From Hyphomicrobium sp. (lineage in GTDB: Bacteria > Pseudomonadota > Alphaproteobacteria > Rhizobiales > Hyphomicrobiaceae), in NCBI RefSeq assembly GCF_003987855.1, contig NZ_RXIZ01000003.1, forward strand, positions 18,233-82,232: a DNA stretch of 64,000 nucleotides. Reading direction: 5' to 3'. Positions 22,908-52,684 of the stretch are shown here, in pieces. Under the pieces are notes generated by a model that saw nothing but the letters and a program-made list of their open reading frames with translations, was not told the origin of the DNA and made no database searches. The position numbers and the translations under genes are program-made. Each line of letters begins with the position of its first letter. Within the stretch, counting starts at the first letter, position 1.

Positions 22908-23001
22908 GGTGCGGAAATGAAGGAAAGCTGGCGGCACAAGCCCTCAACGATTCCGAGAACGCTGTATCTTGCTCCAAGAACATCTCAACGGCTCAATTCC
23001 G

Positions 23002-23691
23002 ATGAATGATAATAGTCTTGAAGACGCGTTCCGTCGGATTTGTTCTTCGGACGAGCCTCTTAGAGAGCGCTTGAAAGAATTTTCCTCGGCTGTTTGCCAG
23101 TTTGCGCCTGAGTTCGCCGCCGTCTATGACGATCTCGTTGCGAGGCTGAAATCTGCTGATGCCGGTAGCGGTGCGCCGAGGCCGGGCGAGCCGATGCCGC
23201 CCTTTGTACTTCCCAACGAGAACAATCGCGTCACTCAGCTGGCAGAGTTCATCGGCAAGCGACCCGTCGTCATCAGTTTCAATCGTGGGCACTGGTGCGA
23301 ATATTGCCAGATCGAACTGCTCGCGCTTCAGTCGGCTCTCCACGAGTTCGCGCAAAGAGATGCGCTGGTCTTCTCGATCATGCCTGAGTTCCAACCGCGC
23401 CGACTTGGGCTGGAACTTAATGACACCATTCAATTCCTATGCGACGCCGACAACGGTTATGCGCTCGATCTTGGTTTGGCGATCTGGCTAGGTGATGAGT
23501 TTCGCGATCTCTACCTCAAGCACGGGATCGAATTGCAGCAGTACAACAGAAGTGAGAGCTGGTTTCTGCCGATACCAGCCACCTTTGTTGTTGGCCGAGA
23601 TGGTCTGATCGCAGACCGCTTCGTCGATCCTGATTTTCGCCACAGGATGGACATCGACGCGATCCTTTCAGCGCTGGATAAAGCTTCGTAG
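23002..23691 (+). CDS. peroxiredoxin-like / thioredoxin-fold protein (AhpC/TSA-like, CxxC)
   Basis: It contains FNRGHWCEYCQIEL (CxxC). It is paralogous over its whole length to 31595..32329 and 32404..33111. The start was chosen by alignment with those paralogs (MNDNSLEDAF...). Confidence 0.8.
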   Translation: MNDNSLEDAFRRICSSDEPLRERLKEFSSAVCQFAPEFAAVYDDLVARLKSADAGSGAPRPGEPMPPFVLPNENNRVTQLAEFIGKRPVVISFNRGHWCEYCQIELLALQSALHEFAQRDALVFSIMPEFQPRRLGLELNDTIQFLCDADNGYALDLGLAIWLGDEFRDLYLKHGIELQQYNRSESWFLPIPATFVVGRDGLIADRFVDPDFRHRMDIDAILSALDKAS

Positions 23692-30693: not shown

Positions 30694-31638
30694 ATGGAAA
30701 TGCACCAAGTTAGATACTTCTTGGCCGTTGCGCGTGAGCTAAATTTCACGCGCGCCGCCGAGAGCTGTAACGTGGCGCAGCCGTCGTTGACACGCGCGAT
30801 TAAGCAACTTGAAGACGAATTGGGAGGCGAACTCTTTCGCCGCGAGCGGAGCCTCTCCCATTTAACCGAACTCGGACAGCGCATGCTGCCGATGCTTCAG
30901 CAGTGTTACGACAGCGCCTTAAACGCCAAATCACTGGCGCAATCTATCAAGAGTGGTGCTGTGGCACCGCTCGCCATCGCCCTATCCGTTACAGTAAACA
31001 TCATGCTGCTCATCCCCTTCCTCTCGGAGCTGATGCGCGTGCTACCCGGTCTTGAACTGCGTTTTTATCGCGGAACGAACAATGAGATCGCGGAGCTTTT
31101 GAAGAAGGGAGAAGCTGAAATCGGAATCGGCGGCGCGCTTGAGGGAGTTTGGGAGCGGCTCGACTCCTGGCAGCTGTTTTCCGAACCATATCTTTTAGTA
31201 GTCGGCAGCCGACACCGCCTCGCATCGCTAGCCGAGCCGGTTTCACCTTCCGAGCTACCGGCTGAACGGCTTCTGTGTCGCACGAATTGTGAGAATGTTA
31301 AGGAAATTCTGCAGTTTCTCGCCGCTCACGGCGGTCAGCCTAGAGTGAAGCACGACATCTCGACCGAACCTGACCTAACGGCCCTCTTAGAGAACAATTT
31401 CGGAATAGGAATCGCGCCAAGAAGCTCGGTGCTCAGTGTGAATGCGCGACGCTTGAAAATCGAGGGTCTCGAAATCACTCGAACAGTGTTCGCCTATGCC
31501 GTTGCCGGGCGACAGCGTTCAACGGCTGCAAGTACATTGATAAAAATGCTTCGTGCCGCTGATTGGCATGCGGTCGAGGAACAGCTCAACCCCGTCAACG
31601 GGGGCCCGGAGATCCTGCCCAGCTCGCGAGTTGCTTGA
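30694..31638 (+). CDS. LysR-family transcriptional regulator (divergent from bdhA)
   Basis: The N-terminal wHTH is MEMHQVRYFLAVARELNFTRAAESCNVAQPSLTRAIKQLE, followed by a LysR substrate-binding domain. The 3' end overlaps the convergent gene by 44 nt. Confidence 0.88.
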   Translation: MEMHQVRYFLAVARELNFTRAAESCNVAQPSLTRAIKQLEDELGGELFRRERSLSHLTELGQRMLPMLQQCYDSALNAKSLAQSIKSGAVAPLAIALSVTVNIMLLIPFLSELMRVLPGLELRFYRGTNNEIAELLKKGEAEIGIGGALEGVWERLDSWQLFSEPYLLVVGSRHRLASLAEPVSPSELPAERLLCRTNCENVKEILQFLAAHGGQPRVKHDISTEPDLTALLENNFGIGIAPRSSVLSVNARRLKIEGLEITRTVFAYAVAGRQRSTAASTLIKMLRAADWHAVEEQLNPVNGGPEILPSSRVA

Positions 31639-32329
31639 GGATCTCGAGAATTTCGTCCGTATCCATTCTCTTGCGGTAGTCGGGGTCGATAAACCGCGCT
31701 TTCACAAGACCATCCTGACCTACGATGAACGTTGCAGGTATCGGAAGCGTCCAGTTCGTGTTGCCCTGAAACGTAGAGAAATCCCAGCCGGCAGCCGTCA
31801 TCGCCTCGCGCTTTTCGTCGCTTACCAGAAACGCCAAGTTGAGAAGCAATGCGTACCCATTGTCCATGTCTGAGAGGATTGGGAAAGTGTCTCGAACTTC
31901 AGGCGCAAGTTCCGAATTGAAGCGCTCGCTTTCAGGAGTGATCGCGACGATCTCCGCCCCGAGAGACTTAACCTCTCCATATATCTGGGCAAGCGCCTGT
32001 GCATTGATGCGGCAGTAGGGGCACCAATGCCCGCGATGAAACGCGATTACCGCCGGCCCATTCGCGATCAGATCATCGAGAGTATGGAGCCGCCCTTTCT
32101 GATCCGGCAACATAAAATTCGGCAGGGGCTCACCGGGTCTTGGGGCATTCGCGCCAACTCCCGTTGCCTTTAAGTGCGCGACCATTCGGTCGACAACATC
32201 GGCGAAATCGGGACTGAGGTCGCGCACATCGGCGGCGAAGGCCTGCAGTCTCGCTGTGAGCGGCGCTTCCATACTCTGGCAGCGCACCGTGCAATCATGC
32301 AGCGCTTCCGAAAGCGTCTTCTCAGCCAT
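31595..32329 (-). CDS. peroxiredoxin-like / thioredoxin-fold protein (CxxC), paralog 2
   Basis: It contains FHRGHWCPYCRINAQAL and shares the N-terminal helical extension with the other two paralogs. Confidence 0.82.
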   Translation of the reverse strand: MAEKTLSEALHDCTVRCQSMEAPLTARLQAFAADVRDLSPDFADVVDRMVAHLKATGVGANAPRPGEPLPNFMLPDQKGRLHTLDDLIANGPAVIAFHRGHWCPYCRINAQALAQIYGEVKSLGAEIVAITPESERFNSELAPEVRDTFPILSDMDNGYALLLNLAFLVSDEKREAMTAAGWDFSTFQGNTNWTLPIPATFIVGQDGLVKARFIDPDYRKRMDTDEILEILKQLASWAGSPGPR

Positions 32330-32403: not shown

Positions 32404-33111
32404 TCAACGATCCGAGCGAAAGCGCGTGAGGATCGACAAAATATCGTCGACTTCCATTCGCTTGCGGAAGTCAGGATCCACAAACCGGCCGATTATGCGG
32501 GCATCGCCGTCGACTACGAAAGTCGCCGGAGCCGGCAGGAACCAGCCGTCGTTGCCATGATATGTATCGAGGTGGTAGCCGCGCCCTTTCATCAAAGTTT
32601 TCAGATGCTCGCCGACCCATACAACGAGGCCAAGCGACAGCGCATAACCGCAATCGACGTCGGTAAGGATGCGAATGTTGTGCTGAGTTGTTCGTCTCAG
32701 ATCATCTGTGAACTGCTGCCTATCGGGAATGATAGAAACAACTTGAGCACCGGTCTTTGCAATCTCGTCGTTATGTTCTGCGATCGTGCGCAGCGTTATC
32801 CGGCAGAATGGGCACCAGTGGCCTCGGTTAAGGCTGAGGATGACTGGTCCTTGTTTTGTTAGTTCCTCTAGGCTGACCAGAAGCCCAGACCTATCTGGCA
32901 ACACAAACTGGGGGAGTGCCGCGCCTAACTCGGGGACCATGTTCCCAACCTCGCCGGAAAAAAGGCGCGCGACGAGATCGTCGTAAGCTTCGGCAAACGG
33001 GAAGTTCAACTCGCGTAGTTTATCGGCATAAGCAGCGAGCCTTGCATTCAAGGGCGCTTGCATCGCGCAGACCTCCGCGAAGGCTTCCGCAAGTGTCGAC
33101 GCGCGCGTCAA
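32404..33111 (-). CDS. peroxiredoxin-like / thioredoxin-fold protein (CxxC), paralog 3
   Basis: It contains LNRGHWCPFCRITLRTI and sits in tandem with paralog 2, separated by a 74-nt gap. Confidence 0.82.
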   Translation of the reverse strand: MTRASTLAEAFAEVCAMQAPLNARLAAYADKLRELNFPFAEAYDDLVARLFSGEVGNMVPELGAALPQFVLPDRSGLLVSLEELTKQGPVILSLNRGHWCPFCRITLRTIAEHNDEIAKTGAQVVSIIPDRQQFTDDLRRTTQHNIRILTDVDCGYALSLGLVVWVGEHLKTLMKGRGYHLDTYHGNDGWFLPAPATFVVDGDARIIGRFVDPDFRKRMEVDDILSILTRFRSDR

Positions 33112-33186
33112 GGATCAGCTCCTTTTATCCTAGTCTCTTGCACGGTCTCGCCTGTTGGCTCAGCTCACATCCCAATCTGATCTGAT

Positions 33187-33222
33187 CGAGCATTGAAGAC
33201 CAATGCTCGTTTCTGCCGGTTT
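33187..33222 (+). terminator. orphan terminator-like hairpin in the cspA upstream region
   Basis: A perfect 9-bp stem CGAGCATTG / CAATGCTCG with a 5-nt loop is followed by TTTCTGCCGGTTT. No plus-strand CDS lies upstream of it. Confidence 0.45.
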
Positions 33223-33638
33223 CCATAGAAACTGGCTATCTGCCCGTCGATCGCTCCTGAAGAAATCGGTGCCCCACACAGCCTTAATCTTCTAAGAAAT
33301 TCCCTAAACCCAAACCGCGGGTGCGATGCTTGATGGCCCCATGCAAAATCGCTGGTCAAGTGCAGATGGGGCGGGGGACGTGAAGCGTCCGCGCATGTTG
33401 CCGGCAACCACAAATTACCTTCAGAGGCATGCCCTATGCTGTTGAAAGGCTTGCGAGCAATGCTTACTGGTCGTCAGTTTCACTCCTTGCGAGCCTGGGG
33501 TGTGGTCACGGATCCGAACATCCGTCAGGTTTCCGAGCGAGATGGGTAGATCACAGCGGTCTAAAACCTGTTCTCCAACAGCACTCCGTGATACAGAGGG
33601 CGGCCCACAGTGGCGAGTATCTTAGACAGGGTGTTTCA

Positions 33639-33848
33639 ATGCCTACCGGAACGGTAAAATTCTACAACGATCAAAAAGGCTACGGTTTCATCGCTCCTGA
33701 TGGCGGTGGCAATGACGTTTTTGTGCATGCCACGGCGCTGGAGCGTGCTGGACTGACGGGCTTACGCGAAAATCAAAAGGTTAGCTTCGAGACTGAAGTT
33801 GATCGCCGGAGTGGTAAGACCGCAGTAAGCACTATCAAACTGGTTTAA
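33639..33848 (+). CDS. cspA: cold-shock protein (CspA family)
   Basis: The protein is MPTGTVKFYNDQKGYGFIAPDGGGNDVFVHATAL, with RNP1 KGYGFI and RNP2 VFVH, and is 69 aa long. The upstream part of track ORF 33429..33848 is probably 5' leader. Confidence 0.93.
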   Translation: MPTGTVKFYNDQKGYGFIAPDGGGNDVFVHATALERAGLTGLRENQKVSFETEVDRRSGKTAVSTIKLV

Positions 33849-33963
33849 TTAATCCGTTTTAGATGTTGGTGAGCGGCTACTGATCAGGTCAACCGGCAAG
33901 TAACGATGTAGCCTCGCTCACGTTCACTTCACGGAAAACGTTTTGCCTGGTATCCACGGGAAG

Positions 33964-34000
33964 CACCGGCCGCCGGGCTGAACGCGGCCGGTGTTTCTTT
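33964..34000 (+). terminator. Rho-independent terminator about 115 nt after cspA
   Basis: A perfect 10-bp stem CACCGGCCGC / GCGGCCGGTG with a 10-nt loop is followed by TTTCTTT. Confidence 0.7.
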
Positions 34001-34348
34001 GAACCAACCTCCAGGACACTCAGGATGAGTGCTGCCTGAAGCTTGGCCACCTTCCACGTCTCGCAAAGCACCGCCGGTTGGAGCAACTCGCGATTGCCAT
34101 TTCCGAGTTGATGGGGGCGAGAGTCGTCAGATCATCTCGTGGCAGAAAATACGTGCAGTCGAATTTCGCCATTGATCGTTTGAAAATCGAAAGCAGCATT
34201 GGGCCACCGGCAACGTGCACCGGAACGCCGTTCAATCAAAACATAAATGTCGCCTACCGGACAATGGAATTGATTGTGGGAATGCCGGTCGGATTAAAAA
34301 TGAAACGCTTGCGTCCTTATGGTGATTCGATAGCCTTATGCGAATTCA

Positions 34349-35512
34349 TTGAGGGAATTGCAATTGGCGTTGGCAAGCGACTCCGAAGAATTATCATATT
34401 CCATCGAGCGACTTTACGATGCAGTCCTCGATCCATCCAAGTGGAATGAAGCTCTAGAGGCAACGACTCGGTTCATCGGCGGTGAAGCGGCTAATCTATT
34501 TTGGCAAGACTTGGCGACCAACGAGGCCGCCGTATTTCATTCTTGGAACGAGGACGCATATTACGGGCAGCTGTATACGGAGAAATACGCGAGCCTGAAT
34601 CCGTATTTCCCGGCGCTGGCCTTCGTAGAGGTTGGTAAGGTGGTTTCCGGTGGCGATCTTATCCCTCACGACGAGTTTCGTCAGACCAGGTTCTATATGG
34701 AATGGGTAAAGCCGCAGAACTACATCGACGTTCTTGGCGCCAACTTGGAACGAACACTGACGAGCACGGCTTTTTTCTCTGTGCAGCGACATGAGCGCCA
34801 AGGGGTCGTCGACGAGCGCGCTCGCGAACGGTGTAACCTTATTCTTCCACATATCAGAAGAGCCGTTTCGATCGGCAAAGTTATCGAAAAAGGACGCGCG
34901 CACGAGCGCCTCCTAGAGAACGCTTTACATCTCATTTCTTCAGCTGCTCTGATGGTGGATGCAACCGGCCGCATCGTTTTCGCGAATGCCAAATCGGAGG
35001 AATATTTGGCGCACGCTGCCATCATTAGAGCGGATCAGGGTATCCTGCACGCTATCGATAGAGATGCGGAACGCGCGCTCAAGGATGCCTTCGCGGCGGC
35101 GGCAAGGGGGGACTCTGTCCTGGGCGTAAAAGGCATCGAAGTAGTCTTGGCCAATGGTGGAAAGAGCCGCTTTGTAGCTCACGTTCTTTGTCTCGCGTCC
35201 GATGCTCGGCGAGACGTCACGACGAGCGGCGCCGTTGCGGCTCTCTTCGTCAACGAAGTTAGATTGGCGCTTCAGTCTCCACTCGAAGAAATCGCCGCGC
35301 GTTTCCTCCTGACGCCTAGTGAACTACGCGTGCTGGCTGCTGTATGGGAGGAGAGCGGAGTACAGCAAATCGCCGAACGGCTCGGCATCTCTGCTGCGAC
35401 AGTCAAGACGCATCTAAACCATATATTCTCGAAGACAGGCCTGCGTCGCCAAGCAGACCTTGTTCGTCTCGCGTCACGCGACGCCACGTTAGACTATCAA
35501 CCGAAAGGTTGA
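34349..35512 (+). CDS. LuxR-family transcriptional regulator (N-terminal sensory region + C-terminal HTH)
   Basis: The C-terminal segment LTPSELRVLAAVWEESGVQQIAERLGISAATVKTHLNHIFSKTGLRRQADLV is a LuxR/GerE HTH. The start is a TTG and is uncertain. Confidence 0.8.
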   Translation: MRELQLALASDSEELSYSIERLYDAVLDPSKWNEALEATTRFIGGEAANLFWQDLATNEAAVFHSWNEDAYYGQLYTEKYASLNPYFPALAFVEVGKVVSGGDLIPHDEFRQTRFYMEWVKPQNYIDVLGANLERTLTSTAFFSVQRHERQGVVDERARERCNLILPHIRRAVSIGKVIEKGRAHERLLENALHLISSAALMVDATGRIVFANAKSEEYLAHAAIIRADQGILHAIDRDAERALKDAFAAAARGDSVLGVKGIEVVLANGGKSRFVAHVLCLASDARRDVTTSGAVAALFVNEVRLALQSPLEEIAARFLLTPSELRVLAAVWEESGVQQIAERLGISAATVKTHLNHIFSKTGLRRQADLVRLASRDATLDYQPKG

Positions 35513-35655
35513 TGCCAGAAAATATAACGACGTCTACGAAAGCTCAGGGAACGAGGGCCGCGCAGTACTGACGTTCTCAGTCTGATGCCGATCGTTTTCA
35601 ACCCGGGTGATCAAACTTCCGGGCGGTCGTGGCTGCGTTTTAAAGAATTCAAACG

Positions 35656-38600
35656 ATGCAAAAACTTGCTCGGACCCACGGCGCAGGCGAATTAACGCGC
35701 GAAACAACCATCGATCAGGGCACGGAGCCACGGGGGATACTCAAGCGTTTTCACCGCGCTCTCGCAATAGTCCGAACAGCCGTTACCGCTAGGCTAATCG
35801 TCATAGCAGCGATTGCTGCTGCCGGCCCTGGTATCGCGCTTTCATCGTATGCGGACGATGTTCCGATGCCGCCGATCGAGCCGGCAACGGAAGCGGGCGC
35901 TCCCCCGATTGATGTGTTCAAACCGGGCGATATCGCGGCCAGCAGCTTCTCGGGCACGAAACTCATTGTCCAAAGTCTGCCGCCCGGCGTCGATCCAGTA
36001 TCGAAGTCCTTTCTCGACCCCGATGGAGTTGTTTTACGCGTCTATTCGTTAGGCAACTTGCCAAGTGCCGCCACGGGACAAATTCTCGGTGCGAGTCCCG
36101 TATTTGAAGGCAAGGCTCGCGATTTGGGTCAAGTCTTCGCGTTGGCTTTCGAAAAGGCAAGCTCCGATAAGTCCACGCCGCCAGCTCTCTACGCGGCAGC
36201 CTCGTCGGCTTTCGGTTTGCAGATCATCGCGCCCGACAAGAATGGAGGCGGTCCGACTCGGATTTGGAAGGGTGCGCCAGGCGCAGCATTCATGCCGGGA
36301 CAATTTGGTGGTCTGCCCAGCTCGGGGCCTGGAACGATCTACAAGATTGATCGGGCAAACGGAGACATACGGGTCTTCGGCAACGTCGCCACGAATGGAA
36401 TTGCGAACAGTGGGCCCGGACTCGGCGGCTTGGCATTCGACCCCGCCAGTAAAACCCTTTACGCGTCCGATCTCGACACGGGGCTCATTCACGCATTTTC
36501 AGCCGATGGATCGGACGTCGCGCAGTTTGATCACGGTGCCGACGGTCGTCCGGTTGGCAAAAGGAATGCGGTTGGTGATAATGGCAAGCGCGCGGACATC
36601 TCATCACCGGAATTCATCGCTTCCGACCCTGCGACGTGGGGTTTCACGCAGACAGAACGGCGTATAGATGCCATCGCCATTCACGACGGGCGCCTCTATT
36701 ACGCAGCCGCGGACGGACCCGAGATTTGGTCGATCGGGATTGATTCAAGCGGCAAGTTCACCAAAGACCCGCGCTTAGAGTTGGCTCCGTCGACTGTAAA
36801 GCCATTTCCAATTACGGCGATCGTGTTTGATGCCGCCGGTCGCATGATCATTACGCAGCGCGGCACACAAGACAATCCCGCAGACTATTCGCAATTCACG
36901 ACGAAGGGCCCGGCCCAAACGCTCCGCTTCACACCAGAAAACCCCGACAATCCGCAAACGCCGGGGCAGTGGAAGCCCACGCCGGACGAATACGCCGTCG
37001 GCAATATCGAAGATTTTCGCGCCTCAAGCGGTGGTCTTGCGATTCAGTACGGCTACAGGGACGATGGCAGCATCGATCTCAGCACCTGCAGCGGCACCAT
37101 CATCGCATCCGGCGACGCGCTTGGAGCGCAGAAGACCGCATTCGGTTTGCAACTTAGCAGTATCGAACGCGTGCGGCCCGCCAATGCCCCGCCTGTCCAA
37201 ACTTCCATTATCGATCTCGATGCCAAACAGGACGATCCGGCGGCGCGCGGCCACGCAGGCGGCATTGCCGTCTTACGGGATTGCGCTGGCGGTGCCGGCG
37301 GCTTCCCGGCAGTGGCCGGTGGTGAAGGCGGAGAGATGCCTCCCGTTGCAGGCGGCGAGCCGGGCGGAGGATCTCCAGGAGCGACCGGCGGCGGCGAAAT
37401 GTTCCCCCAGGTGGACGAGTCCGCAGAGGGCGGCGGCGGTACGGTAACCGATGATCAACAAGGCGGTGGTGGCACGACGACGAACGGTCCGCTGACGATG
37501 ACCAAGTCGCCCGGGTCGGCGACATGCGCGGAAAATCAATCGTGCTCTTTCAAAATCACAGTCACGAACAACGGCGACAAGCCCGTCGACAAAATCGTCT
37601 TCACCGACAACCCAACGATCGGCGGCGCCCCGTTCACGAAGTTCAAGTTGGGCGACGTTGCGGCTCCCTGGAAATGTGAAGCCTCTGCGGCGCCGGGCAT
37701 GCAATGCACGAACGCCGATCCCTTGCAGCCGAAGGCATCGACCGAACTCACGCTTTCCTTCACGCCGGATCCGGGTTCGCTCGCTGGCGCTTCCGAACTG
37801 AAGAACTGCGCGGCGTTTCCGGCCGGGGCAAACCAACAAGGAAACGGTCCGCAGCAAGCGCTGCCGCCTCCGCCCCCGCCGAGTGGAACTAACAACGGCG
37901 GTCTGAAAGTCGAGATGGCGCCTACGGCTGCGTCTTGTTCGCCTGCGACCGGCAATTGCGAGTTCAAGCTCACGATCACTAACACGACCGGCCAGCCAAT
38001 TACGGCGCCGCTAAAGATCTTCAACACGCTCGCCGTGGGCACACAATCGCAGGCGAAGAATGAAGCAAAGTCGATGCAGCTTCCTGCTGGTCTGACATGC
38101 CAGCCAGAAGGCCGCGAATTCAATTGCTCGCAGGATCAGCTGACGCTCGCTCCGAACGGTGCACTTACGATGTCCGTCGCATATTCGGTCGATACCACCG
38201 AAGGCGGGGACGCAAATTTCGTCCAAAACAAGAGCGCCGTCACATTCGGGCCACTCACCGGCGAAGCAACGGCGGCGGTCGCCTTCGTTGACAACGCCAA
38301 GCTGCCCGAGCCAGGCGCGGACGCTCAGAAGCCGGGTAACGCCGGACCGGCCGAACCTGCGTGCGCAAGCATTCCGATCGCGCCAAGCGGACCGATCGTC
38401 GTCAACAAAAAAGGGCCCGCGAAGTGCGCGATCAAGGGACCATGCGCCTTCACCATTGACGTGACGAACGCCTCCAACGCGCCCGTACAAGGGCCGATCG
38501 AAATTGAAGACACGATCGATCTGCCGAATGCCACGATAGCCACCCCGGTCGCCGCGCCATTTTCGTGCGACGCGGCGGGACCTCCATTCAAATGCAAGTT

Positions 38601-41600
38601 CGACGGCACCCTTCAGCCGAAAGAAACGAAAACGCTCGCACTAACTCTGAATATCGACGCGCCGGCCGGTACCAAGTCATTGAAGAATTGCGCCGTGCCG
38701 ACGCAGCCGCAAGCCGCAGGTGGGCAAGGTGGCGCTGGGCAGGGCCAAGGCGGGGGAGGAAAAGGCCAGCAGAAAAATCAGCTCGCGCCGGGCAAGAAGT
38801 CGGATCTCTTTCCCTTCGGCAGAAAGGCGATTTTCGACTTTGCAGCGTTTCGTCCGCAATCGCTACCGCACGCGACGTCGCTTTTGCATTTCACGGGTGG
38901 GGCAGGCGGCAATATCGGCGGCGTCGGCCCGAACAAATGCAAGCAATGGGGAATGCCGCAGAACGGCTTCAACATCATACAGAGTAACGGACCGCACGTT
39001 GGCTTCGGCGATGTGAAAGTTGGGCCCGACGGCAAGGTCACCGGAACGGCTTCTTTCATATCCAATGACGGGCCGGTGGGCGGCACCGTGACAGGAACCA
39101 TCATCGGATCTCAGGTCGATCTCACGGTCAATTGGAAGAACAACAACGTCAAAAGCGGCCATTACACGGGCACCATCGAGCCCGACGGCGACTTTTCCGG
39201 TTTGAACAGAGCCTCAAACGGCAACACCGCGACGTTCAAGAGCAGTAAGATCTGGTTCAAGTGTTCGCTCGACGACCTTTGTCAAAAATACGCCGACGAC
39301 GCCATCGCGACAGTGAGGGAATTTCAAAGCCTGAAATGCGGTTCTGTCGGTCCGGGCCGTTTCTCGCTCAATAAGCAAGAGCATATCGATTGGTGCATGG
39401 CGCAAACCCGCGGTGGTGGCAGTCCTATCCCCGTCGAAACAGAAGAGCGCACAAAGCGGCTCGACTCCTGTCGCGCATTCGATGCGAAATGCACTCAGGC
39501 CGGACTCGCGATCGCCGCGAAGAACGACGAGATGAAAGCGCTCAACTGCAAGGACGCGATACCGTCATTGCAGCCGGACAGAGCGAAGGACGCCTGCAAA
39601 GCGGCGGCTTTAAAAGCTAGTCCGGAGGCATTGGTGCAGGGCGTGCAGGAGAAACTCGACGCCTGCAAGCTCGCGAAGTTGAACGGTGACGGTGGAGCAG
39701 GTGCTCCCGGCGGCGCTGGCGGCGCAGGCGATCCCGGCGCCGGCGGACCGGCCAATCCCGGCAACGACAATGGCGCGAATGGCCAGGGGGGCGACCAGGT
39801 TCAGCAGCCGGCCGGCAATCAATGCGTAACCGTCGAACTAGAGGAAAAGCCTGCCCCAAATCCGCAGCAGGCAGGCAAGCTCGCGCTCTCCAAAAATCCG
39901 GCTGCCGGCAAATGTACCTCGACCGGCGGCGGCTGCGATTTCGTTATCTCGGTATTCAATCCTGATCCGGCAGTCGACTTCGTCGGTCCCGTGGACTTCA
40001 CGGATCATATTTCACAACCGGACGGATCTCCGTTCCCGAATGTCACGGTCCAGACGCCGATAAACCCGCTGGCAGACTCGGGGATCAAGGGCGGGGTGCT
40101 CGGTTGCAGGAAAAACGGCAATGACGTGAACTGCACGTCAAGCGGTGCCTCGCTGACGATACCGCCCGGCAAGAAGATTCTCATCCCTATGAGCTTCACC
40201 CCCGGGGGCGACACCACAGCCAAGGCCGTCAAGAACTGCGCCTCGCTTCCCGGAGGAGAACAGCAATGCGTGACAATACCGTTCGGTGAGAACGGTCCGC
40301 TGCTCCGCGCCAAGAAGATCGCAGTCGGCAATCCCCAGACTTGCGTACCCAATTGCGAATTCATCATCACGATGAGCAACGTGGGTACGACCGACGCGCA
40401 AGGGCCATTCGTGCTGAAGGACGTTTTCACGGCCGCAAACGGCTTTGACTCTTTCAAGATGATCGGCGACAGCGCCTTCGCGTGCACGAGTACCAATGGC
40501 ACGATCGGCTGCATCTCGACCAACAAGGGCGCGAATACATTGCGACCCGGAGAGACAATCTCCGGCGTGATCCTGTTCAACATCAGCTCGGTATCGCCAG
40601 AATATAAGAACTGCGTGCAATACGATCCCGCAGTCCAGGCAAAGCCCAGTCCCTTCGATCAGGATGCCGGTCCACTATGCGCGGTCGTCAAAGATACGGC
40701 GCATGCCGGACCCAATCTTCTAATGCAGCTTACGGCGCCCAATGAAGGACCGGATGGCGTCGGCGAATGCGCCATCAATTCGCCGTGCCGCTTCCAAACC
40801 CTCGTTCGCAGCAACGGCACCGTCGATTTTCCGGAACGAGCCCGGTTTACCGCAACTGTCTCGCCAAATGTTCCGCAAAGCCTGAAGGCGGGTGACAACC
40901 GATGGATATGCAGCCCCAATAACGGCGGTAAGATAGAGTGCTCAGACGGTCTTCAGCAAAAGCTGCTGGCCGTAGGAAATCAGTTGCCGGGTGAGATCGA
41001 AGTCCTTGCCGGACCGGGTTGGCAGAAGAACGATACCTTGACGCTTTGCGCCAAGATCGCACCCGCAAATTCCAAGAGCGACACCAACCCAGCCGACGAT
41101 CTCGCATGCAAATCCGTCAAGCTTGACCCTTTCAACGTCAAGGTATCGAAGACGGGCGATCAGTCATGCACGCCAGGAGGCGACTGCCATTTCGCGATCA
41201 ATCTCTTCAACCCTGGGCCGATCGATCACAACGCGCCGGTAACGATCACTGATCACCTCAACGGTTTGTCGTCCGCGACCATCGTATCGATCAATCCGCC
41301 GTTGCCGTGTGCGACGCAGCCGACGCAAATTCCATTTTCGTGCACGTCACCTGGCAACGTGTGTCTGAAAATCGGCGCCAAGGCTGGTGATGCCTGCGGA
41401 CCGCTGACCTTCCAGATGGTGGTGCGGTTGCCAAACGATACGAGCGCGACGCAGTTCGCCAACTGCGTAAGCGTGACGGCGGGTGAAAAATCGCGGAGCG
41501 ATGACGAGTCGTGCCATCCGGTATCGCTTAAGCCCGTAGTGACAACCGTTCCTCCGCCGCGCGAGACGGCGCCCGTAGTCACAACGCCGCCCCGCGAATG

Positions 41601-42711
41601 CTTCGGCGGCATGATCATGGTCGGAAATCTCTGCCAGTGCCCGCCAGGGTCGCGCTTCAATGGCAGGCGTTGCTTCTCAGACGGCGGAGAGGGCGGCGCG
41701 TATCCGGCCGTCCAGCCGGGCAATGTCGTCGTGCCTGTGGAGCCGCCGCGGTGCCCAGCCTTCCGGCCAGTCGGTATCTATCCGAACTGCTGCCCGCTCG
41801 GAACCGATTATCGATTCGGCGCCTGCCGCCGACCTTCTCCGATCGTAGTCCCGCCGCCAGCGGTGGAGCGCCCGCCGGTCTGTCCCTCGTATCGACCGGT
41901 CGGCACGTATCCGAATTGCTGCCCGCTCGGTATGGAATACAGGTACGGCTCATGCCGCCGCCGCGGGACGACAGGTCCGGGAACGGGAGGTGCGGACGGC
42001 ACCTATCCGAATACAGAACCGCCATCGCGGAAGTGCCCATCTTTCCGACCCATCGGCACGTATCCGAATTGTTGCCCGCTCGGCATGGAATTCCGGTTCG
42101 GGTCGTGCCGACGTGCGCCGACCGGGGGAGGCGGCGCGGATGGAACCATTCCCGGCACTGAACTGCCACCCCGTAAGTGCCCATCGTTCCGACCCATCGG
42201 CATGTATCCGAACTGCTGCCCAATCGGCATGGAATTCAGGAACGGTTCTTGCCGACGCCCCTCAACATCTGACCAGGGTTCTGGCGGCACGAACGGAACG
42301 ACGTCTCCGGATGATCGCAAATGCCCGCCGGGCTACCACCGCCTTCGCCGTCCGAACAAGTATGGTGCCTATTGTGAGCCAGATCAGTCGCAGAAGTGCC
42401 CGCCAAGTGCGCCAGAAGGCACGCCTCCCAATTGCCATTGTCCAGCCGGAACCGTCTCCCGAGGCGGGTTCTGCCGGCCGGCATCGTGCGGACCTAACAT
42501 GACGGGCACGCCGCCTAATTGTCATCGCATCTGTCCGCCGGGCACGGTCAATCGCAATGAGACGTGCGTGCAAATTCAGAAGCCGCCGCCGAAAAAGACG
42601 CCCCCGAATTGCACTGGCGGAAAGGTGCCGCGAAATCCTGACGGACTCTGCGTCTGTCCGGCGGGATTTATAGACCAGGGTGGGCGATGTGTTCCGCGAG
42701 GTCCCGCCTAA
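35656..42711 (+). CDS. giant secreted multi-domain protein (2351 aa): beta-propeller-like N-region, 7 Cys-paired DUF11/Ig-like modules, unassigned central module, Cys-rich C-terminal repeats
   Basis: A single uninterrupted ORF with a signal-like segment LIVIAAIAAAGPGIALSSYA. Blade-like motifs are present (GLGGLAFDPASKTLYASD, IDAIAIHDGRLYYAA, ITAIVFDAAGRMIIT). The seven module cores are CSFKITVTNNGDKPVD, CEFKLTITNTTGQPIT, CAFTIDVTNASNAPVQ, CDFVISVFNPDPAVDF, CEFIITMSNVGTTDAQ, CRFQTLVRSNGTVDF and CHFAINLFNPGPIDHN. No SD is obvious before the ATG. Confidence 0.85.
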   Translation: MQKLARTHGAGELTRETTIDQGTEPRGILKRFHRALAIVRTAVTARLIVIAAIAAAGPGIALSSYADDVPMPPIEPATEAGAPPIDVFKPGDIAASSFSGTKLIVQSLPPGVDPVSKSFLDPDGVVLRVYSLGNLPSAATGQILGASPVFEGKARDLGQVFALAFEKASSDKSTPPALYAAASSAFGLQIIAPDKNGGGPTRIWKGAPGAAFMPGQFGGLPSSGPGTIYKIDRANGDIRVFGNVATNGIANSGPGLGGLAFDPASKTLYASDLDTGLIHAFSADGSDVAQFDHGADGRPVGKRNAVGDNGKRADISSPEFIASDPATWGFTQTERRIDAIAIHDGRLYYAAADGPEIWSIGIDSSGKFTKDPRLELAPSTVKPFPITAIVFDAAGRMIITQRGTQDNPADYSQFTTKGPAQTLRFTPENPDNPQTPGQWKPTPDEYAVGNIEDFRASSGGLAIQYGYRDDGSIDLSTCSGTIIASGDALGAQKTAFGLQLSSIERVRPANAPPVQTSIIDLDAKQDDPAARGHAGGIAVLRDCAGGAGGFPAVAGGEGGEMPPVAGGEPGGGSPGATGGGEMFPQVDESAEGGGGTVTDDQQGGGGTTTNGPLTMTKSPGSATCAENQSCSFKITVTNNGDKPVDKIVFTDNPTIGGAPFTKFKLGDVAAPWKCEASAAPGMQCTNADPLQPKASTELTLSFTPDPGSLAGASELKNCAAFPAGANQQGNGPQQALPPPPPPSGTNNGGLKVEMAPTAASCSPATGNCEFKLTITNTTGQPITAPLKIFNTLAVGTQSQAKNEAKSMQLPAGLTCQPEGREFNCSQDQLTLAPNGALTMSVAYSVDTTEGGDANFVQNKSAVTFGPLTGEATAAVAFVDNAKLPEPGADAQKPGNAGPAEPACASIPIAPSGPIVVNKKGPAKCAIKGPCAFTIDVTNASNAPVQGPIEIEDTIDLPNATIATPVAAPFSCDAAGPPFKCKFDGTLQPKETKTLALTLNIDAPAGTKSLKNCAVPTQPQAAGGQGGAGQGQGGGGKGQQKNQLAPGKKSDLFPFGRKAIFDFAAFRPQSLPHATSLLHFTGGAGGNIGGVGPNKCKQWGMPQNGFNIIQSNGPHVGFGDVKVGPDGKVTGTASFISNDGPVGGTVTGTIIGSQVDLTVNWKNNNVKSGHYTGTIEPDGDFSGLNRASNGNTATFKSSKIWFKCSLDDLCQKYADDAIATVREFQSLKCGSVGPGRFSLNKQEHIDWCMAQTRGGGSPIPVETEERTKRLDSCRAFDAKCTQAGLAIAAKNDEMKALNCKDAIPSLQPDRAKDACKAAALKASPEALVQGVQEKLDACKLAKLNGDGGAGAPGGAGGAGDPGAGGPANPGNDNGANGQGGDQVQQPAGNQCVTVELEEKPAPNPQQAGKLALSKNPAAGKCTSTGGGCDFVISVFNPDPAVDFVGPVDFTDHISQPDGSPFPNVTVQTPINPLADSGIKGGVLGCRKNGNDVNCTSSGASLTIPPGKKILIPMSFTPGGDTTAKAVKNCASLPGGEQQCVTIPFGENGPLLRAKKIAVGNPQTCVPNCEFIITMSNVGTTDAQGPFVLKDVFTAANGFDSFKMIGDSAFACTSTNGTIGCISTNKGANTLRPGETISGVILFNISSVSPEYKNCVQYDPAVQAKPSPFDQDAGPLCAVVKDTAHAGPNLLMQLTAPNEGPDGVGECAINSPCRFQTLVRSNGTVDFPERARFTATVSPNVPQSLKAGDNRWICSPNNGGKIECSDGLQQKLLAVGNQLPGEIEVLAGPGWQKNDTLTLCAKIAPANSKSDTNPADDLACKSVKLDPFNVKVSKTGDQSCTPGGDCHFAINLFNPGPIDHNAPVTITDHLNGLSSATIVSINPPLPCATQPTQIPFSCTSPGNVCLKIGAKAGDACGPLTFQMVVRLPNDTSATQFANCVSVTAGEKSRSDDESCHPVSLKPVVTTVPPPRETAPVVTTPPRECFGGMIMVGNLCQCPPGSRFNGRRCFSDGGEGGAYPAVQPGNVVVPVEPPRCPAFRPVGIYPNCCPLGTDYRFGACRRPSPIVVPPPAVERPPVCPSYRPVGTYPNCCPLGMEYRYGSCRRRGTTGPGTGGADGTYPNTEPPSRKCPSFRPIGTYPNCCPLGMEFRFGSCRRAPTGGGGADGTIPGTELPPRKCPSFRPIGMYPNCCPIGMEFRNGSCRRPSTSDQGSGGTNGTTSPDDRKCPPGYHRLRRPNKYGAYCEPDQSQKCPPSAPEGTPPNCHCPAGTVSRGGFCRPASCGPNMTGTPPNCHRICPPGTVNRNETCVQIQKPPPKKTPPNCTGGKVPRNPDGLCVCPAGFIDQGGRCVPRGPA
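41752..42258 (+). repeat. four tandem in-frame Cys-rich repeats within the giant CDS
   Basis: The four cores are CPAFRPVGIYPNCCPLGTDYRFGACRR, CPSYRPVGTYPNCCPLGMEYRYGSCRR, CPSFRPIGTYPNCCPLGMEFRFGSCRR and CPSFRPIGMYPNCCPIGMEFRNGSCRR. Core starts are at about 41752, 41881, 42034 and 42178, with variable Gly/Pro linkers between them. Confidence 0.85.
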
Positions 42712-42773
42712 GTGCGAGCATCCAAGCGTACAATTGTGTGCGAGGTGACTGAGCTCGGAGCAGAGGGAGTTCT

Positions 42774-43358
42774 GTGCGTATGCGGCGGATAATCTACAGC
42801 GGCGCATGCAAGTTTGCCGCGGCAACGATAGTGATCTTAGCCACTCCACATGAGCTGCGAGCCGCCGAATTTTCACTTCATTGCGCGCGCGCGGATGTGG
42901 TCAACCCGGCGTGGGATGGGCCGTTGACGTTCCGATATGACGGGTCCGATCACGGAACACTCCAGGTGGGAGGCGTCTTCGGTGATTTCACGCTTCCGGC
43001 GACACGCGCGCCATTACAAATTCAGCCGGGCGAGATGGGAGAAGCGATCGACGGCAGCGCAGCGGTGCAAGTGAAATTACCTCGACTGGACGAACTCGAC
43101 GCGTGCATCAGCCAGGGGGCCGGCAAGTCCGCAGATGATATGGCGACGGGCCGCGATCAATGTATTCAAAAATTGTCACCGTCATCCTCACTCGTCGATG
43201 CGTCGGCGCGGATCCGGATCGGCTTCACTGGAGCGAAGGATGACAGTGGTGAGGACGCTTTTGTGGTCTTTAGATTGCAATATGCGGCACGCAGTCAAGT
43301 CTCCGGCGGTGTGATGACTGTGGAAGCATTCCCCGCACATTGCACACTGAAGAAGTGA
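42774..43358 (+). CDS. hypothetical secreted protein downstream of the giant gene
   Basis: The N-terminus is signal-like (ACKFAAATIVILATPHELRA). It lies 62 nt after the giant CDS on the same strand. I recognise no family. Confidence 0.55.
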   Translation: MRMRRIIYSGACKFAAATIVILATPHELRAAEFSLHCARADVVNPAWDGPLTFRYDGSDHGTLQVGGVFGDFTLPATRAPLQIQPGEMGEAIDGSAAVQVKLPRLDELDACISQGAGKSADDMATGRDQCIQKLSPSSSLVDASARIRIGFTGAKDDSGEDAFVVFRLQYAARSQVSGGVMTVEAFPAHCTLKK

Positions 43359-43372
43359 CTTTTGCATTCCAT

Positions 43373-43400
43373 CCGCTGCAACACGTCTCTCAGCGGTTTG
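43373..43400 (+). terminator. weak hairpin terminator after 42774..43358
   Basis: A 6-bp stem CCGCTG / CAGCGG with a 12-nt loop is followed by TTTGGGCGCGTTTG. Confidence 0.3.
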
Positions 43401-43733
43401 GGCGCGTTTGATGTCTTTGATTTAGAGAAATCTGTATGCCGCAAGTTCGCCGTGTGGGTCACACACGAATTGCGAGCCGAGCGGTCGCTGCAGCGGTCGT
43501 CCTTGGACGAAGCGGATAATAGGTTGGACATTCTGATCCCGAGGGTCTAACGTACAAATGGCGTTAGGCGCATGAACATCAGACGGCGCCTCTCTTATCT
43601 TCGGCATACTTCGCGCGGTTCAGCTGTCGAACTCACTATCGATGCCGACTTCGTTAAGCTGACGTTGTAGCTTGAATTCTGCTGATCCGTTGCTGCTTCG
43701 GAGCTGATATTCCGGGCGCATGAGGAGCCTGCC

Positions 43734-43961
43734 ATGAAAGAGGATTTTATTCGCGTCACGCGGCGCCGTGATGGCTCGTGGACTGTGTTTCGCGGGCCCC
43801 ATAGTCTCATGCTCCTCGCATTCCGTTTGAAAGCTCACGCAATCGCCTATGCACGCGCCGTCTCGTTCTCAGGAAAGCTGATCCTCTTTGTCGATGACAA
43901 AAGTGGAGTAGCGATCCGGCAATCGTCGTCGAGCCTGACCTATCCAATGCTCCTCGAGTAG
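43734..43961 (+). CDS. small hypothetical protein (75 aa, possibly DUF2188-like)
   Basis: A GAGGAG SD lies 6 nt upstream. The pattern RRDGSWTVFRG...KAHAIAYARAVS...LILFVDDKSG resembles DUF2188 proteins, but the resemblance is weak. Confidence 0.5.
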   Translation: MKEDFIRVTRRRDGSWTVFRGPHSLMLLAFRLKAHAIAYARAVSFSGKLILFVDDKSGVAIRQSSSSLTYPMLLE

Positions 43962-44040
43962 GAAAAGACGTTAGCGCTGTGCATCTCGCTGTTGCCGTGT
44001 ACCCGAACGGATCCAGCAGAAACCGCGAGAGAAAGAAATA

Positions 44041-44424
44041 ATGACAGCAAGTCACGTCGTCACAAGATCTGCCGCGCTAGCCAAGCGCGGGTTGAAGCAG
44101 ACCTGCGAAAATCTTGAATGCGCTAATAGGTTCTACGATCTGAAGCGGGAACCCTCTGCATGCCCTTATTGTGGCACGCCGTCCAATGCTACCCCCGCGA
44201 TTGTGCTGAACTTCGATACGCTCGGTAAGATCCGTCCAAATAAACGCAATCGGTGGGCGGAGCCCAAGAAGCCAGCCATCGAAGTCTCAAAAGTCGAAGA
44301 CGAGGTTGTCGACGAGCAAGTCGATAATGAAGCGGAAATTCCGTCAGCCGCCGAGGAACTGTTAATCGAGACCGAGGATGACGATGCGGACGAGCTCGTA
44401 GAGGATACGAGCGAATTGACTTAG
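44041..44424 (+). CDS. TIGR02300 (FYDLN_acid) family protein: Zn-ribbon plus acidic tail
   Basis: The N-terminal ribbon is CENLECANRFYDLKREPSACPYCG. The C-terminal tail is rich in D/E (EDEVVDEQVDNEAE...TEDDDADELVEDTSE). Confidence 0.8.
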   Translation: MTASHVVTRSAALAKRGLKQTCENLECANRFYDLKREPSACPYCGTPSNATPAIVLNFDTLGKIRPNKRNRWAEPKKPAIEVSKVEDEVVDEQVDNEAEIPSAAEELLIETEDDDADELVEDTSELT

Positions 44425-44448
44425 CTCTAGGAAAGTTTGGAGCCCGAA

Positions 44449-44724
44449 ATGTCACAAACTGACGAGTTCTTGGCGGCTTTTGCTCGTCTGCCCCAAGAAG
44501 AGCGAGAACGCAGTATCCGTCTCATCAATGCTTACAATGACGCTGTTGTCGAATCTCGTTCGAGCCATGCGGCAGCAAACGAGCCGTTCCAGTTATTCAG
44601 CTCGGCAGAAGTGGAACGCCTCGTTAAAGACTTTCGTGCCGATAGGTTGTCCCGAATAGGTCCCGCGATGGGACGCTATTTGTCCCTTTTGGACCGCGGA
44701 TACAGGTGGCCGAGCTTCGTGTAG
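44449..44724 (+). CDS. small hypothetical protein (91 aa)
   Basis: The ATG at 44449 has a GGAG 6 nt upstream; the track ORF begins at a TTG at 44437. I recognise no family. Confidence 0.5.
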   Translation: MSQTDEFLAAFARLPQEERERSIRLINAYNDAVVESRSSHAAANEPFQLFSSAEVERLVKDFRADRLSRIGPAMGRYLSLLDRGYRWPSFV

Positions 44725-44770
44725 CAGCGGCCAAGTCGATCTACAAAAATTTGAAACTCAGGAGAACGCG

Positions 44771-44908
44771 ATGCCCAAAGGCAATCAAAGAACCAACCGC
44801 GAGATACGGAAGCCGAAAGCTCCAAAATCGAAACCTGGTCAACTCGCGGCGAGTTTCACAAAAGCCCCACTGGGTTCCACGATGACCAGCGGAACCAAGA
44901 AGAAGTGA
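44771..44908 (+). CDS. small basic Lys-rich protein (45 aa), below the ORF-track size cut-off
   Basis: I read it directly from the sequence: CAGGAGAACGCG-ATG, translating to MPKGNQRTNREIRKPKAPKSKPGQLAASFTKAPLGSTMTSGTKKK followed by TGA. It has a strong SD. Similar MPKG...REIRKPK peptides are annotated in other Rhizobiales, but that is from memory and has not been checked. Confidence 0.55.
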   Translation: MPKGNQRTNREIRKPKAPKSKPGQLAASFTKAPLGSTMTSGTKKK

Positions 44909-44922
44909 TAGCGCCGTCGGCA

Positions 44923-46071
44923 TCACGTTCGGAGCATGATTAGCGGCAGGGTGATGTGAGCGACCATACCGTCCGGATTCCAGTCTTTTTCGATCGTCCC
45001 GCCCAGCCCCTGGATAGAACCGAGAATTAGACGTGTGCCATAGCCGATATCTCTCGGAGCGACCACGTGCGCCGCTCCTATTTCTCGCCACGTCAGAACT
45101 AAGGATTCGTCAAGCTTGGTCCACGAAACCTGGACTTCGCCGTCCCCCCTGCTGTAAGCGCCGTACTTAGCCGAGTTCGTCGCCAATTCGTGGAAAGCTA
45201 ATGCGAGTGAGTTGATAGCCCGTTCACCGAGAGCGATATCAGGGCCGTTCAACACGGGCGGCTTATATGGCTTGAGTGTTGCCTCGATTACGTCATTCAA
45301 GGAGACAACATCAAACGATATTTTATCGTTCTCGACGAGCTTGATGAGGGCATGGGCATCGGCGAGTGCCCTGAGCCGTGCGGATAGGCTCTGCCTCATC
45401 TCCTCCTTGGTGCTGCTGTGACGGGCGGCCATTTCTACCAACGCACTGGTTACAGCAAACAAATTTTTGACTCGGTGGCTCATCTCCAGAGCGAGAGTTT
45501 CGCGCTGTTCTACAGCCGATCTTAGCTCTTTCTCCGATTGGATCATCTTCAAAGCTACGCCAGTAAATACGGCGAGTTCCATCATAACGCGAGCGTCGCC
45601 CGAGTGAAAATGTTGCCCCTCCTCGGCAACCACCCACAGAGTGCCGAGAGGTGGGCTTCCCTTGATTTGGAGAGGAACCAGAAGGACCTCGGGAATGGTA
45701 ATACCCGCCTCGGCGATCCACTGGTACGCACGCTCAGGACGTTCCATCAAAACCGGCTTCATCGAGTCGATACAAACTCCGCACGGGCTGAAGCCGCGAG
45801 GGGTCCGTGTATCTTCGAGGTCCGATAGACGGCCGGAAAGGTCCAGCCAGCGGAACTCCTGGCCCTCGAGCACGCTGATGCCCGCTGAGTCCGCTGCGCA
45901 TAGTTCCATCGCGAGTTTCACAAGCCTCGGCAGAACTTCGGCAGGATACTCCGCCATTTGATGGGCAAGATCCTGCAGAGCCACTTTCTCGAGGAGGTAA
46001 TTGGGAATTGGAGGAGGGCGCAGATCCAGCACGTCGGTGATCAGAACGCTGCTTATGTCAGGATGGCTCAA
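44923..46071 (-). CDS. GAF-domain sensor histidine kinase, HWE/HisKA_2 type
   Basis: The phospho-acceptor H-box is EMSHRVKNLFAVTSALVEMA. The ATPase N-box is HELATNSAKYGA. A GAF-like N-terminal domain is present, and there is no TM segment. Confidence 0.85.
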   Translation of the reverse strand: MSHPDISSVLITDVLDLRPPPIPNYLLEKVALQDLAHQMAEYPAEVLPRLVKLAMELCAADSAGISVLEGQEFRWLDLSGRLSDLEDTRTPRGFSPCGVCIDSMKPVLMERPERAYQWIAEAGITIPEVLLVPLQIKGSPPLGTLWVVAEEGQHFHSGDARVMMELAVFTGVALKMIQSEKELRSAVEQRETLALEMSHRVKNLFAVTSALVEMAARHSSTKEEMRQSLSARLRALADAHALIKLVENDKISFDVVSLNDVIEATLKPYKPPVLNGPDIALGERAINSLALAFHELATNSAKYGAYSRGDGEVQVSWTKLDESLVLTWREIGAAHVVAPRDIGYGTRLILGSIQGLGGTIEKDWNPDGMVAHITLPLIMLRT

Positions 46072-51309: not shown

Positions 51310-51613
51310 TGTGCGCGGGTTTCGCTTCTGACTTTCGCCGTTAGGATTTGCTGAACGCATATACGTATTCACCAAGCCAGCGCTCCGCTCGCACCGCAAC
51401 GACGAATTCAATTGACGACGAATGGACGAGAGCGTCCTGTTCTTCGCGGATGGACGGGCCACTACGAACGTCATCGAGTCAGCTGATGCTAGCGTTCGTT
51501 TATGATTTGCAATCCGCGATAACGCGGCACGTCGTTCATGACGTCGTCCACAGCACGCCCGCGTTTCAGCCAGCGAGCTTTTGGGGACGCTCTTCTTCTT
51601 CGGAGGAGAGCGT

Positions 51614-52636: not shown

Positions 52637-52684
52637 TTCCGGAGGCTGTCGCTTGGAATCTTTAAGAACAACAGGAGTCGAAAA

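Follow-up and report, generated by a model that had tools for sequence, protein, structure and literature searches.

A 2351-residue, Cys-rich protein of Hyphomicrobium sp. with a beta-propeller head and a divergent CLIPPER (DUF11) stalk

The domain DUF11 has been renamed CLIPPER and its structure solved (PDB 9IFR); it is a CnaA-like stalk domain of fibrillar adhesins that carries a Lys-Asn isopeptide bond, catalysed by Asp, and about 30% of CLIPPER domains, or 58% of those from Pseudomonadota, are reported to have disulfides as well as the isopeptide bond (PMC12617251). A gene at 35656..42711 (+) of a 64,000 nt stretch of DNA from Hyphomicrobium sp. (contig NZ_RXIZ01000003.1; the whole stretch is called the window below) encodes a 2351 aa protein that resembles the CLIPPER fibrillar adhesins, such as B9T28_05395 of Acinetobacter silvestris (9IFR; PMC12617251), in being long, in having a signal peptide and a tandem DUF11 stalk in its middle part, and in showing a putative Lys/Asp/Asn triad with similar spacing and disulfides beside the triad. 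It differs from them in having no sorting or anchor domain, a head without a Pfam family, a stalk split by a barrel and a helical insert, a tail of EGF/EB-like knots, and divergent modules that score singly below the model cut-off and in two cases lack the triad. Of the fibrillar-adhesin layout it has the signal peptide, a non-repeat domain at one end and stalk repeats in tandem, and an anchor module was not found. The stalk type and its Cys pairing are already known; head, insert and tail are undescribed, as is the link to peptidoglycan-binding partners. We consider it somewhat probable that the protein forms a cross-linked fibre that is exported, associated with peptidoglycan and equipped with a binding head. 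Its parts are as follows.

35656..35853 (+): Sec-type signal peptide, residues 1-66, the sole hydrophobic segment
35854..37290 (+): beta-propeller head, residues 67-545, from an AlphaFold model, Foldseek and conservation among homologues
37291..37473 (+): Gly-rich flexible linker, residues ~545-612, with 38% Gly and 10% Pro
37474..38727 (+): CLIPPER/DUF11 modules 1-3, residues 607-735, 745-866 and 908-1024, boundaries from a hidden Markov model (HMM), with Pfam DUF11 matches on modules 1 and 3
38938..39273 (+): part A of an insert, an up-and-down beta-barrel, residues 1095-1206, from AlphaFold (AF2) and Foldseek
39274..39681 (+): part B of the insert, a helical bundle with eight invariant Cys, residues 1207-1342, from AF2 helices and Cys columns
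39862..41523 (+): CLIPPER/DUF11 modules 4-7, residues 1403-1542, 1543-1668, 1694-1816 and 1818-1956, HMM boundaries, with a DUF11 match on module 7
41533..42708 (+): basic Pro/Gly/Cys-rich tail, residues 1960-2351, from regular-expression units and composition

The gene starts with ATG and is a single open reading frame (ORF) without a break, with a predicted product of ~235 kDa that contains 88 Cys in total. An earlier reading of the locus, made from the sequence only, had described an uninterrupted 7-kb ORF downstream of a LuxR-type regulator, and both parts of that description hold, the upstream gene matching PF00196. Contigs from three unrelated studies (one freshwater metagenome and two differently labelled organisms) showed zero differences from positions 33300-45000 of the window, and the finding of an identical sequence in three independent studies means that 35656..42711 is not an assembly artefact. 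In a strain about 2% divergent (run X13) the frame is intact and the indels within the ORF are all in-frame (-21, -3 and +3 nt), unlike the flanking non-coding spacers, which carry indels of 1-2 nt. Disruption of the ORF in related strains, which the sequence-only reading had named as evidence against its case, was looked for in this strain and the frame is still open. The full architecture is also kept in homologues of 55-68% identity. The 35656..42711 frame is a real gene under constraint.

The limits of the stalk modules were set by an HMM built from the repeats. Their common pattern is C-x5/6-C followed by a strand of the type F-x-I-x-V-x-N, with a second pair C-x8-10-C and a K-N-C-A strand, and the Cys columns are at least 90% conserved over 700 family modules, as are those of the insert and the head. 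The whole protein scores 44.7 bits on Pfam PF01345 (DUF11) against a cut-off of 24.6, in agreement with the DUF11-type style noticed previously; modules 1, 3 and 7 reach 18.7-23.1 bits singly, each under the cut-off, so that it is the summed score that passes. Relatives score 59-110 bits with the same model, and the modules are best classed as divergent DUF11/CLIPPER domains. The sequence-only reading had counted seven Cys-paired modules in a single series. The number was recovered by the HMM; the single series was not, as the modules are arranged 3 + 4, split by an insert of ~380 residues. Nor is the Cys-paired Ig module new, since CLIPPER domains bearing disulfides beside their isopeptide bonds have already been reported (PMC12617251).

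The residues of the Lys/Asp/Asn triad are distributed over the seven modules as follows.

Modules 1, 3, 4 and 5: all three residues at the aligned columns
Module 7: Asp and Asn present, Lys offset by 1-2 positions
Module 2: Asn only, Lys and Asp missing
Module 6: none of the three

The spacing in module 1 (K617-34-D651-66-N717) is close to that of the solved domain (K715-33-D748-58-N806). Of 700 modules from 120 family proteins, 594 have Asp/Glu together with Asn, 79 have neither and 27 have just one of the two, a count that includes related modules and is inflated by their shared ancestry. Joint loss of the two residues, with 27/700 discordant, is the pattern expected if they cooperate. On this basis isopeptide bonds are predicted in five of the seven modules (with the offset Lys in module 7). 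Apart from the shared ancestry of the counted modules, two further points weigh against the prediction and the wider reading that includes it: the triad was assigned by column position and co-variation rather than from coordinates, and sequence searches of the PDB did not retrieve 9IFR, either with the seven-module profile (nothing at E<=10) or with a canonical in-family DUF11 domain (no credible relative).

The head is the family-defining domain. It is N-terminal in every protein of the profile set, whose members range from ~450 to 2577 residues in length, and in distant relatives, in which modules, insert and tail come and go, no other segment is so well conserved. All 120 homologues listed have the head, at 38-71% identity, and at E<=1e-30 its profile collected 842 clusters (50% identity), a number that rises to 1748 at E<=1e-10. 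An AF2 model built with an alignment of 22 family members is all-beta, with a predicted local distance difference test (pLDDT) value of 79.4 and a predicted template modelling score (pTM) of 0.84. When this model was compared with the PDB by Foldseek, it matched beta-propellers only (DFPase, lactonases, YWTD and NHL), with low query-normalised template modelling scores (TMq 0.27-0.37) and no close structural neighbour. The sequence profile of the head found DFPase alone, at E ~0.006 over one to two blades, and there was no Pfam match in the head at E<=5. The beta-propeller-like region and the Gly-rich spacer after it, both proposed in the sequence-only reading, are thus borne out by the all-beta model with its propeller-only fold matches and by the measured 38% Gly. 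The head contains one conserved Cys pair (C478 and C543) and is acidic, with an isoelectric point (pI) of 4.8.

Escherichia coli YncE, a periplasmic seven-bladed protein, is likewise a Sec-exported beta-propeller, and its name is the one given by NCBI to Mesorhizobium relatives of the window protein. YncE is a single-domain protein of ~350 aa. Membership of the YncE family was considered and rejected: the window protein matched no YncE or related NCBIfam model at E<=1, its head matched no Pfam model at E<=5, and the fold match is generic to propellers. Other database names of the relatives are 'hypothetical', 'DUF11 domain-containing' and 'lactonase YvrE'; the models behind the 'YncE family' and 'lactonase YvrE' labels do not match the window protein.

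The head was found in 301 loci of a collection with one genome per species, and its carriers include Hyphomicrobium, Methyloligella, Devosiaceae, Aminobacter and many Mesorhizobium species. To judge from these matches, it marks a large family across soil and water Hyphomicrobiales. A secreted caspase domain precedes the head in some relatives. Mesorhizobium loti (L038) shares with the window protein a head (42% identical), Cys-paired DUF11 modules and four-Cys tail repeats. It differs in that two adjacent genes beside dnaK-dnaJ replace the single fused gene, one encoding a 736 aa head protein and the other a 1282 aa protein with DUF7929, Cys-paired DUF11 modules and a four-Cys tail; the window protein is fused and has no DUF7929. 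The same M. loti locus (strain DSM 2626) has a 768 aa ORF at 7336-9642 (+) that matches Pfam 'NAD-GH' (PF10712) with 667 bits and overlaps a 770 aa minus-strand ORF at the place expected for dnaK beside dnaJ; the 768 aa ORF is presumably the known antisense-of-dnaK artefact and not a gene. A literature search found no paper on the head family and none linking DUF11 to Rhizobiales genera.

The insert that separates modules 3 and 4 (residues 1025-1402) was missed in the sequence-only reading. Its AF2 model (pLDDT 85) has two parts, a barrel closed by the invariant C1095 and C1203, and a helical bundle; all ten Cys of the insert are invariant in 16 homologues. The top Foldseek matches of the barrel in the PDB were rhizavidin/avidin-like proteins and designed beta-barrels (E 4e-4, TMt 0.47-0.56), which are weak. 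Like the bacterial avidins (rhizavidin, shwanavidin and agroavidin), which gave the best PDB match, it is an up-and-down barrel of eight to ten strands. It differs from them in that the match is distant (E 4e-4, TMt ~0.5, 14-15% identity) and in that designed barrels and lipocalins score alike. The term avidin was not adopted beyond fold resemblance, given a weak match that designed barrels equal. Two genes downstream of the closest orthologue lies a gene (L003 18227-19030, +) for a free-standing 267 aa protein that is 39% identical over 46 aa to the bundle (window 39280-39408). The occurrence of this segment in a free-standing protein indicates that the bundle may be a mobile module.

The Cys-rich tail reported by the sequence-only reading holds 34 Cys in residues 1960-2351 and has a pI of 9.13, giving the protein a marked charge asymmetry (head pI 4.8, tail pI 9.1). 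A regular expression picks out seven to nine units of four Cys each (C-x10-12-C-x0-1-C-P-x-G-x7-C), four near-identical CPSFRPIGTYPNCCPLGMEFRFGSC repeats among them. The Pfam EB module (PF01683) is matched marginally, in three stretches, its 24.6 bits just exceeding the cut-off of 24.3, and relatives match EB, Teneurin-EGF or TIL. No relative of the tail was found in the PDB by sequence.

The signal-like segment seen at the start by the sequence-only reading corresponds to the only hydrophobic segment of the protein (residues 34-66), with cleavage predicted after residue 66, between SSYA and DD. The n-region is long (~40 aa), the h-region covers about residues 44-62, and ATG codon 1 is the only start codon before the hydrophobic segment. 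Homologues have clear signal peptides at the equivalent position. The ~2% divergent strain (run X13) has a 21-nt in-frame deletion in the n-region (window 35699), suggesting that the long extension is not tightly constrained.

Routes of export beyond Sec, and of attachment, were then considered. Regular expressions over the whole protein found no LPXTG, no lipobox and no RTX array (there is one isolated GGxGxD), and Pfam and NCBIfam at E<=1 gave zero autotransporter, PEP-CTERM, or other sorting or outer-membrane models; the only NCBIfam match at that threshold was TIGR01451 (E 0.007). The absence of a known sorting or anchor module, noted previously, therefore holds in Pfam, NCBIfam and motif searches. 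Neither in the window nor in those flanks of relatives that were fetched does a protein secretion system adjoin the gene, and type II secretion genes are likewise missing from the 64-kb window and those flanks. A set of ABC-2/HlyD efflux-type genes is found 25 kb away, with no type I genes adjacent to the large gene.

Giant adhesins of the RTX/LapA-like type are also repeat-rich envelope proteins with Ig-like stalks. They are Cys-poor, have no Sec signal, combine RTX repeats with a secretion signal at the C-terminus, and are encoded beside ABC and membrane fusion protein (MFP) genes. The window protein differs from them in its 88 Cys, its Sec signal peptide, its one GGxGxD and the lack of an adjacent type I system. 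A type I secreted RTX adhesin was rejected on the single GGxGxD, the Cys-rich C-terminus and the absence of adjacent type I genes. Autotransporter and two-partner secretion (TPS), for which a barrel, TPS domain or ESPR was sought, were rejected for want of a Pfam match, and the long n-region appears to be unconstrained, given the 21-nt deletion in the related strain. A lipoprotein and a sortase or exosortase substrate were likewise rejected, as the features that define them were tested for and are missing.

The relatives narrow down how the protein may be attached. Each of the three closest orthologues (P0002, P0004 and P0006) is followed directly by a gene for a signal-peptide protein that combines DUF4892 with an OmpA peptidoglycan-binding domain; locus L014 has the same arrangement, and in L018 a DUF4892 + OmpA gene is adjacent and divergent. 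In the literature DUF4892 receives a passing mention in two papers only. In L005 and L016, a protein with PG_binding_1, a fold unrelated to OmpA, is encoded directly downstream of the large gene. PG_binding_1 is also a recorded or measured domain inside the large homologues P0085 and P0092, and in P0085 the last DUF11 match precedes it and the Cys-rich tail follows it. The swap for a non-homologous protein of the same activity, together with the fusion, is a fair argument for a functional peptidoglycan link at the C-terminal end, and the three independent links in relatives are a clue that may tie the family to peptidoglycan. The sequence-only reading had left both export and attachment unexplained: with regard to sorting modules this still applies, and attachment can be narrowed to a possible link with peptidoglycan, to which the OmpA and PG_binding_1 domains in relatives point. 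Two genes of the window itself flank the large gene and recur in related loci.

34349..35512 (+): LuxR/GerE-type regulator of 387 aa with a weak PAS-like N-terminal part; PF00196 at 42.7 bits, helix-turn-helix at residues 321-375
42774..43358 (+): small secreted 4-Cys protein of 194 aa, a candidate partner; signal peptide and synteny

The regulator gene ends 143 nt before the large gene. Its homologues adjoin the large gene in L003 (74% identity) and in L008, L010, L011 and L012 (54-55%), synteny in five loci that upholds the LuxR link made earlier. The 194 aa gene starts 62 nt past the stop of the large gene, and homologues follow the large gene in five other loci, namely L001, L005 (44% identity), L009, L013 and L014, so that its earlier naming as a possible partner remains plausible. 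The window, which lacks the peptidoglycan-binding gene, thus retains the gene that comes after it in the cassette. The 194 aa protein has no relatives in Pfam or NCBIfam, and a search of the PDB gave chance matches only. Neighbour links are recurrent, not obligatory. In two long-form loci, the genes directly downstream encode repeat-rich proteins without a Pfam match (L004 15194-16417, +; L017 15677-17701, +), mutually ~50% identical over repeated 180 aa stretches, and these may be another type of partner.

The peptidoglycan-associated fibre to which we incline would be formed as follows. The protein would be exported by Sec and fold oxidatively in the periplasm, as its 88 Cys and the conserved Cys positions in relatives suggest. 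The stalk would comprise seven CLIPPER domains with two or three disulfides each, five of them locked by predicted, self-catalysed Lys-Asn isopeptide bonds, and a second binding site may be provided by the avidin/calycin-like barrel and helical bundle that interrupt it. The C-terminal end, a basic array of EGF/EB-like four-Cys knots, would be proximal to the cell and, by extension from relatives, would sit non-covalently at peptidoglycan via a partner peptidoglycan-binding protein, whose gene, not being in the window, would be elsewhere in the genome or lost. The 194 aa secreted protein is probably also involved, and the adjacent LuxR-type regulator probably controls expression. The acidic propeller head, at the far end, would be the working end, most likely binding a ligand, by analogy with fibrillar adhesins. 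The sequence-only reading had suggested a disulfide-stabilised periplasmic or surface adhesin; the Sec signal and 88 Cys agree with its extracytoplasmic, disulfide-rich part, and the word adhesin stands by analogy only. A match to a described adhesin family with a known secretion route, which it had named as counter-evidence to novelty, was found in part: the stalk matches CLIPPER, and no known route was found.

Several points weigh against this fibre. No peptidoglycan-binding gene is present in the window, so that the tether is extrapolated from relatives, and the peptidoglycan binder, the 194 aa protein and the LuxR regulator each occur in only about one-third of long-form loci. The propeller resemblance of the head is generic, with TM scores below 0.4, and from the model an enzymatic role of the head appears as open as a binding role. 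RNA-labelled run X13 has even coverage over genes and spacers alike and is possibly DNA, runs X25, X26 and X28 gave patchy short contigs along the ORF and lend weak support to its transcription, and a poly-A library labelled organism A (the label of several runs that contain this sequence) had zero reads for the locus.

The alternatives begin with one in which the protein would stay inside the cell envelope. A purely periplasmic scaffold, exported by Sec, oxidised by Dsb, tethered to peptidoglycan and never passing the outer membrane, where it would act as a spacer or ligand binder, is an unlikely reading. In its favour are the lack of any outer-membrane translocation or sorting module in the searches made, the peptidoglycan-binding partners or fused domains of relatives, and three secreted TlpA-like redoxin genes at most 13 kb upstream, with a fourth redoxin-domain protein at the window start. 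However, a fibre composed of seven Ig-like domains and about nine EGF-like knots, together with long Gly-rich linkers, would far exceed the width of the periplasm; CLIPPER stalks have been described in surface proteins (PMC12617251), and the fused PG_binding_1 near the C-terminus suggests that one end only is held at the wall. An undescribed type of Hyphomicrobiales envelope fibre, locked by isopeptide bonds and disulfides, docked at its tail by an interchangeable OmpA- or PG_binding_1-type partner and with its head brought to the surface by a passage through the outer membrane unlike any known secretion system, is in that complete form quite unlikely.

Release from the cell is less credible again. 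A matrix or adhesin protein could be folded in the periplasm and passed out by type II secretion or a similar route, its basic tail binding the cell's own polysaccharide or other surfaces, and disulfide-rich, pre-folded cargo does suit type II rather than type I secretion, just as a Sec signal peptide without an anchor and a fibrillar-adhesin-like architecture suit a released protein. This has to be set against the lack of type II secretion genes both in the window (64 kb) and in the flanks fetched for relatives, and against a recurrent peptidoglycan-binder neighbour that is hard to reconcile with release. Least probable, and very unlikely in our estimate, is a tethered enzyme, with a six- or seven-bladed head that would act as a calcium-dependent hydrolase or lactonase (DFPase/SMP30/gluconolactonase type) and with all other parts serving as a stalk to position it in the envelope. 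DFPase and lactonases are the best profile and fold matches, JGI labels one relative 'sugar lactone lactonase YvrE', and many polar residues are invariant (including N187, D208, D210, D228, H229, E311 and several Arg, in the numbering of alignment A1); the matches are weak, however (E ~0.006 over one to two blades, TMq 0.27-0.37, root-mean-square deviation >10 Å), and no Pfam or NCBIfam enzyme family was matched.

Four genes of the window encode AhpC/TSA-redoxin proteins (TlpA-like thiol:disulfide oxidoreductases), at 873-2615 (+), 22969-23691 (+), 31595-32329 (-) and 32404-33111 (-). The last two form a tandem pair 2.5-4 kb upstream of the 88-Cys protein, and the first also has a Thioredoxin_10 domain. 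It is possible that these redoxins are tied to the oxidative folding of the 2351 aa protein.

The ~1.5 kb after the 194 aa gene (43359-44922) holds small ORFs only, of which 44041-44424 belongs to the FYDLN_acid family, and the deepest contigs of RNA-labelled run X26 fall in this region. Near-identical sequence is contained in runs X13 and X25-X37, which are labelled as RNA of other, differently named organisms, suggesting that other cultures or samples are often accompanied or contaminated by this bacterium. An Rfam scan of 33000-45000 gave zero RNA families, and hence no riboswitch ahead of the 2351 aa gene. Consensus promoters and terminators were not more numerous than the shuffled expectation, and the operon structure was not deduced from these chance-level counts. 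There was no match in PLSDB, leaving a plasmid origin unsupported.

Elsewhere in the window, a same-strand run at 16700-22907 (+) encodes a MotA/ExbB-like channel protein, a 647 aa protein with weak, sub-threshold Pfam matches only that is possibly a coiled coil, and two Sel1-repeat proteins (681 and 475 aa). A sulfatase cluster at 48808-54328 (+) consists of an 833 aa sulfatase, a formylglycine-generating enzyme (FGE-sulfatase) and a 547 aa sulfatase, and an alkyl-sulfatase lies apart from it at 10727-12832. The gene at 26033-27631 (+) encodes a 532 aa reprolysin-like (M12B) metallopeptidase, a family uncommon in bacteria.

The head of the 2351 aa protein represents a propeller without a Pfam model that occurs in more than 800 clusters and 301 loci, and among its carriers are Mesorhizobium, which is important in agriculture, and the methylotroph Hyphomicrobium. 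For crossing the outer membrane or attaching to it the protein has no known means, and its family recurs beside two unrelated folds of peptidoglycan binder. Should the peptidoglycan tether prove true, it would give a testable explanation of how a Sec-exported fibre that has no classical anchor can be retained by Gram-negative bacteria. The five modules that combine a predicted isopeptide bond with two or three disulfides are candidate building blocks of very high stability, and the ligand of the head could matter for the attachment of soil and water bacteria to roots or particles.

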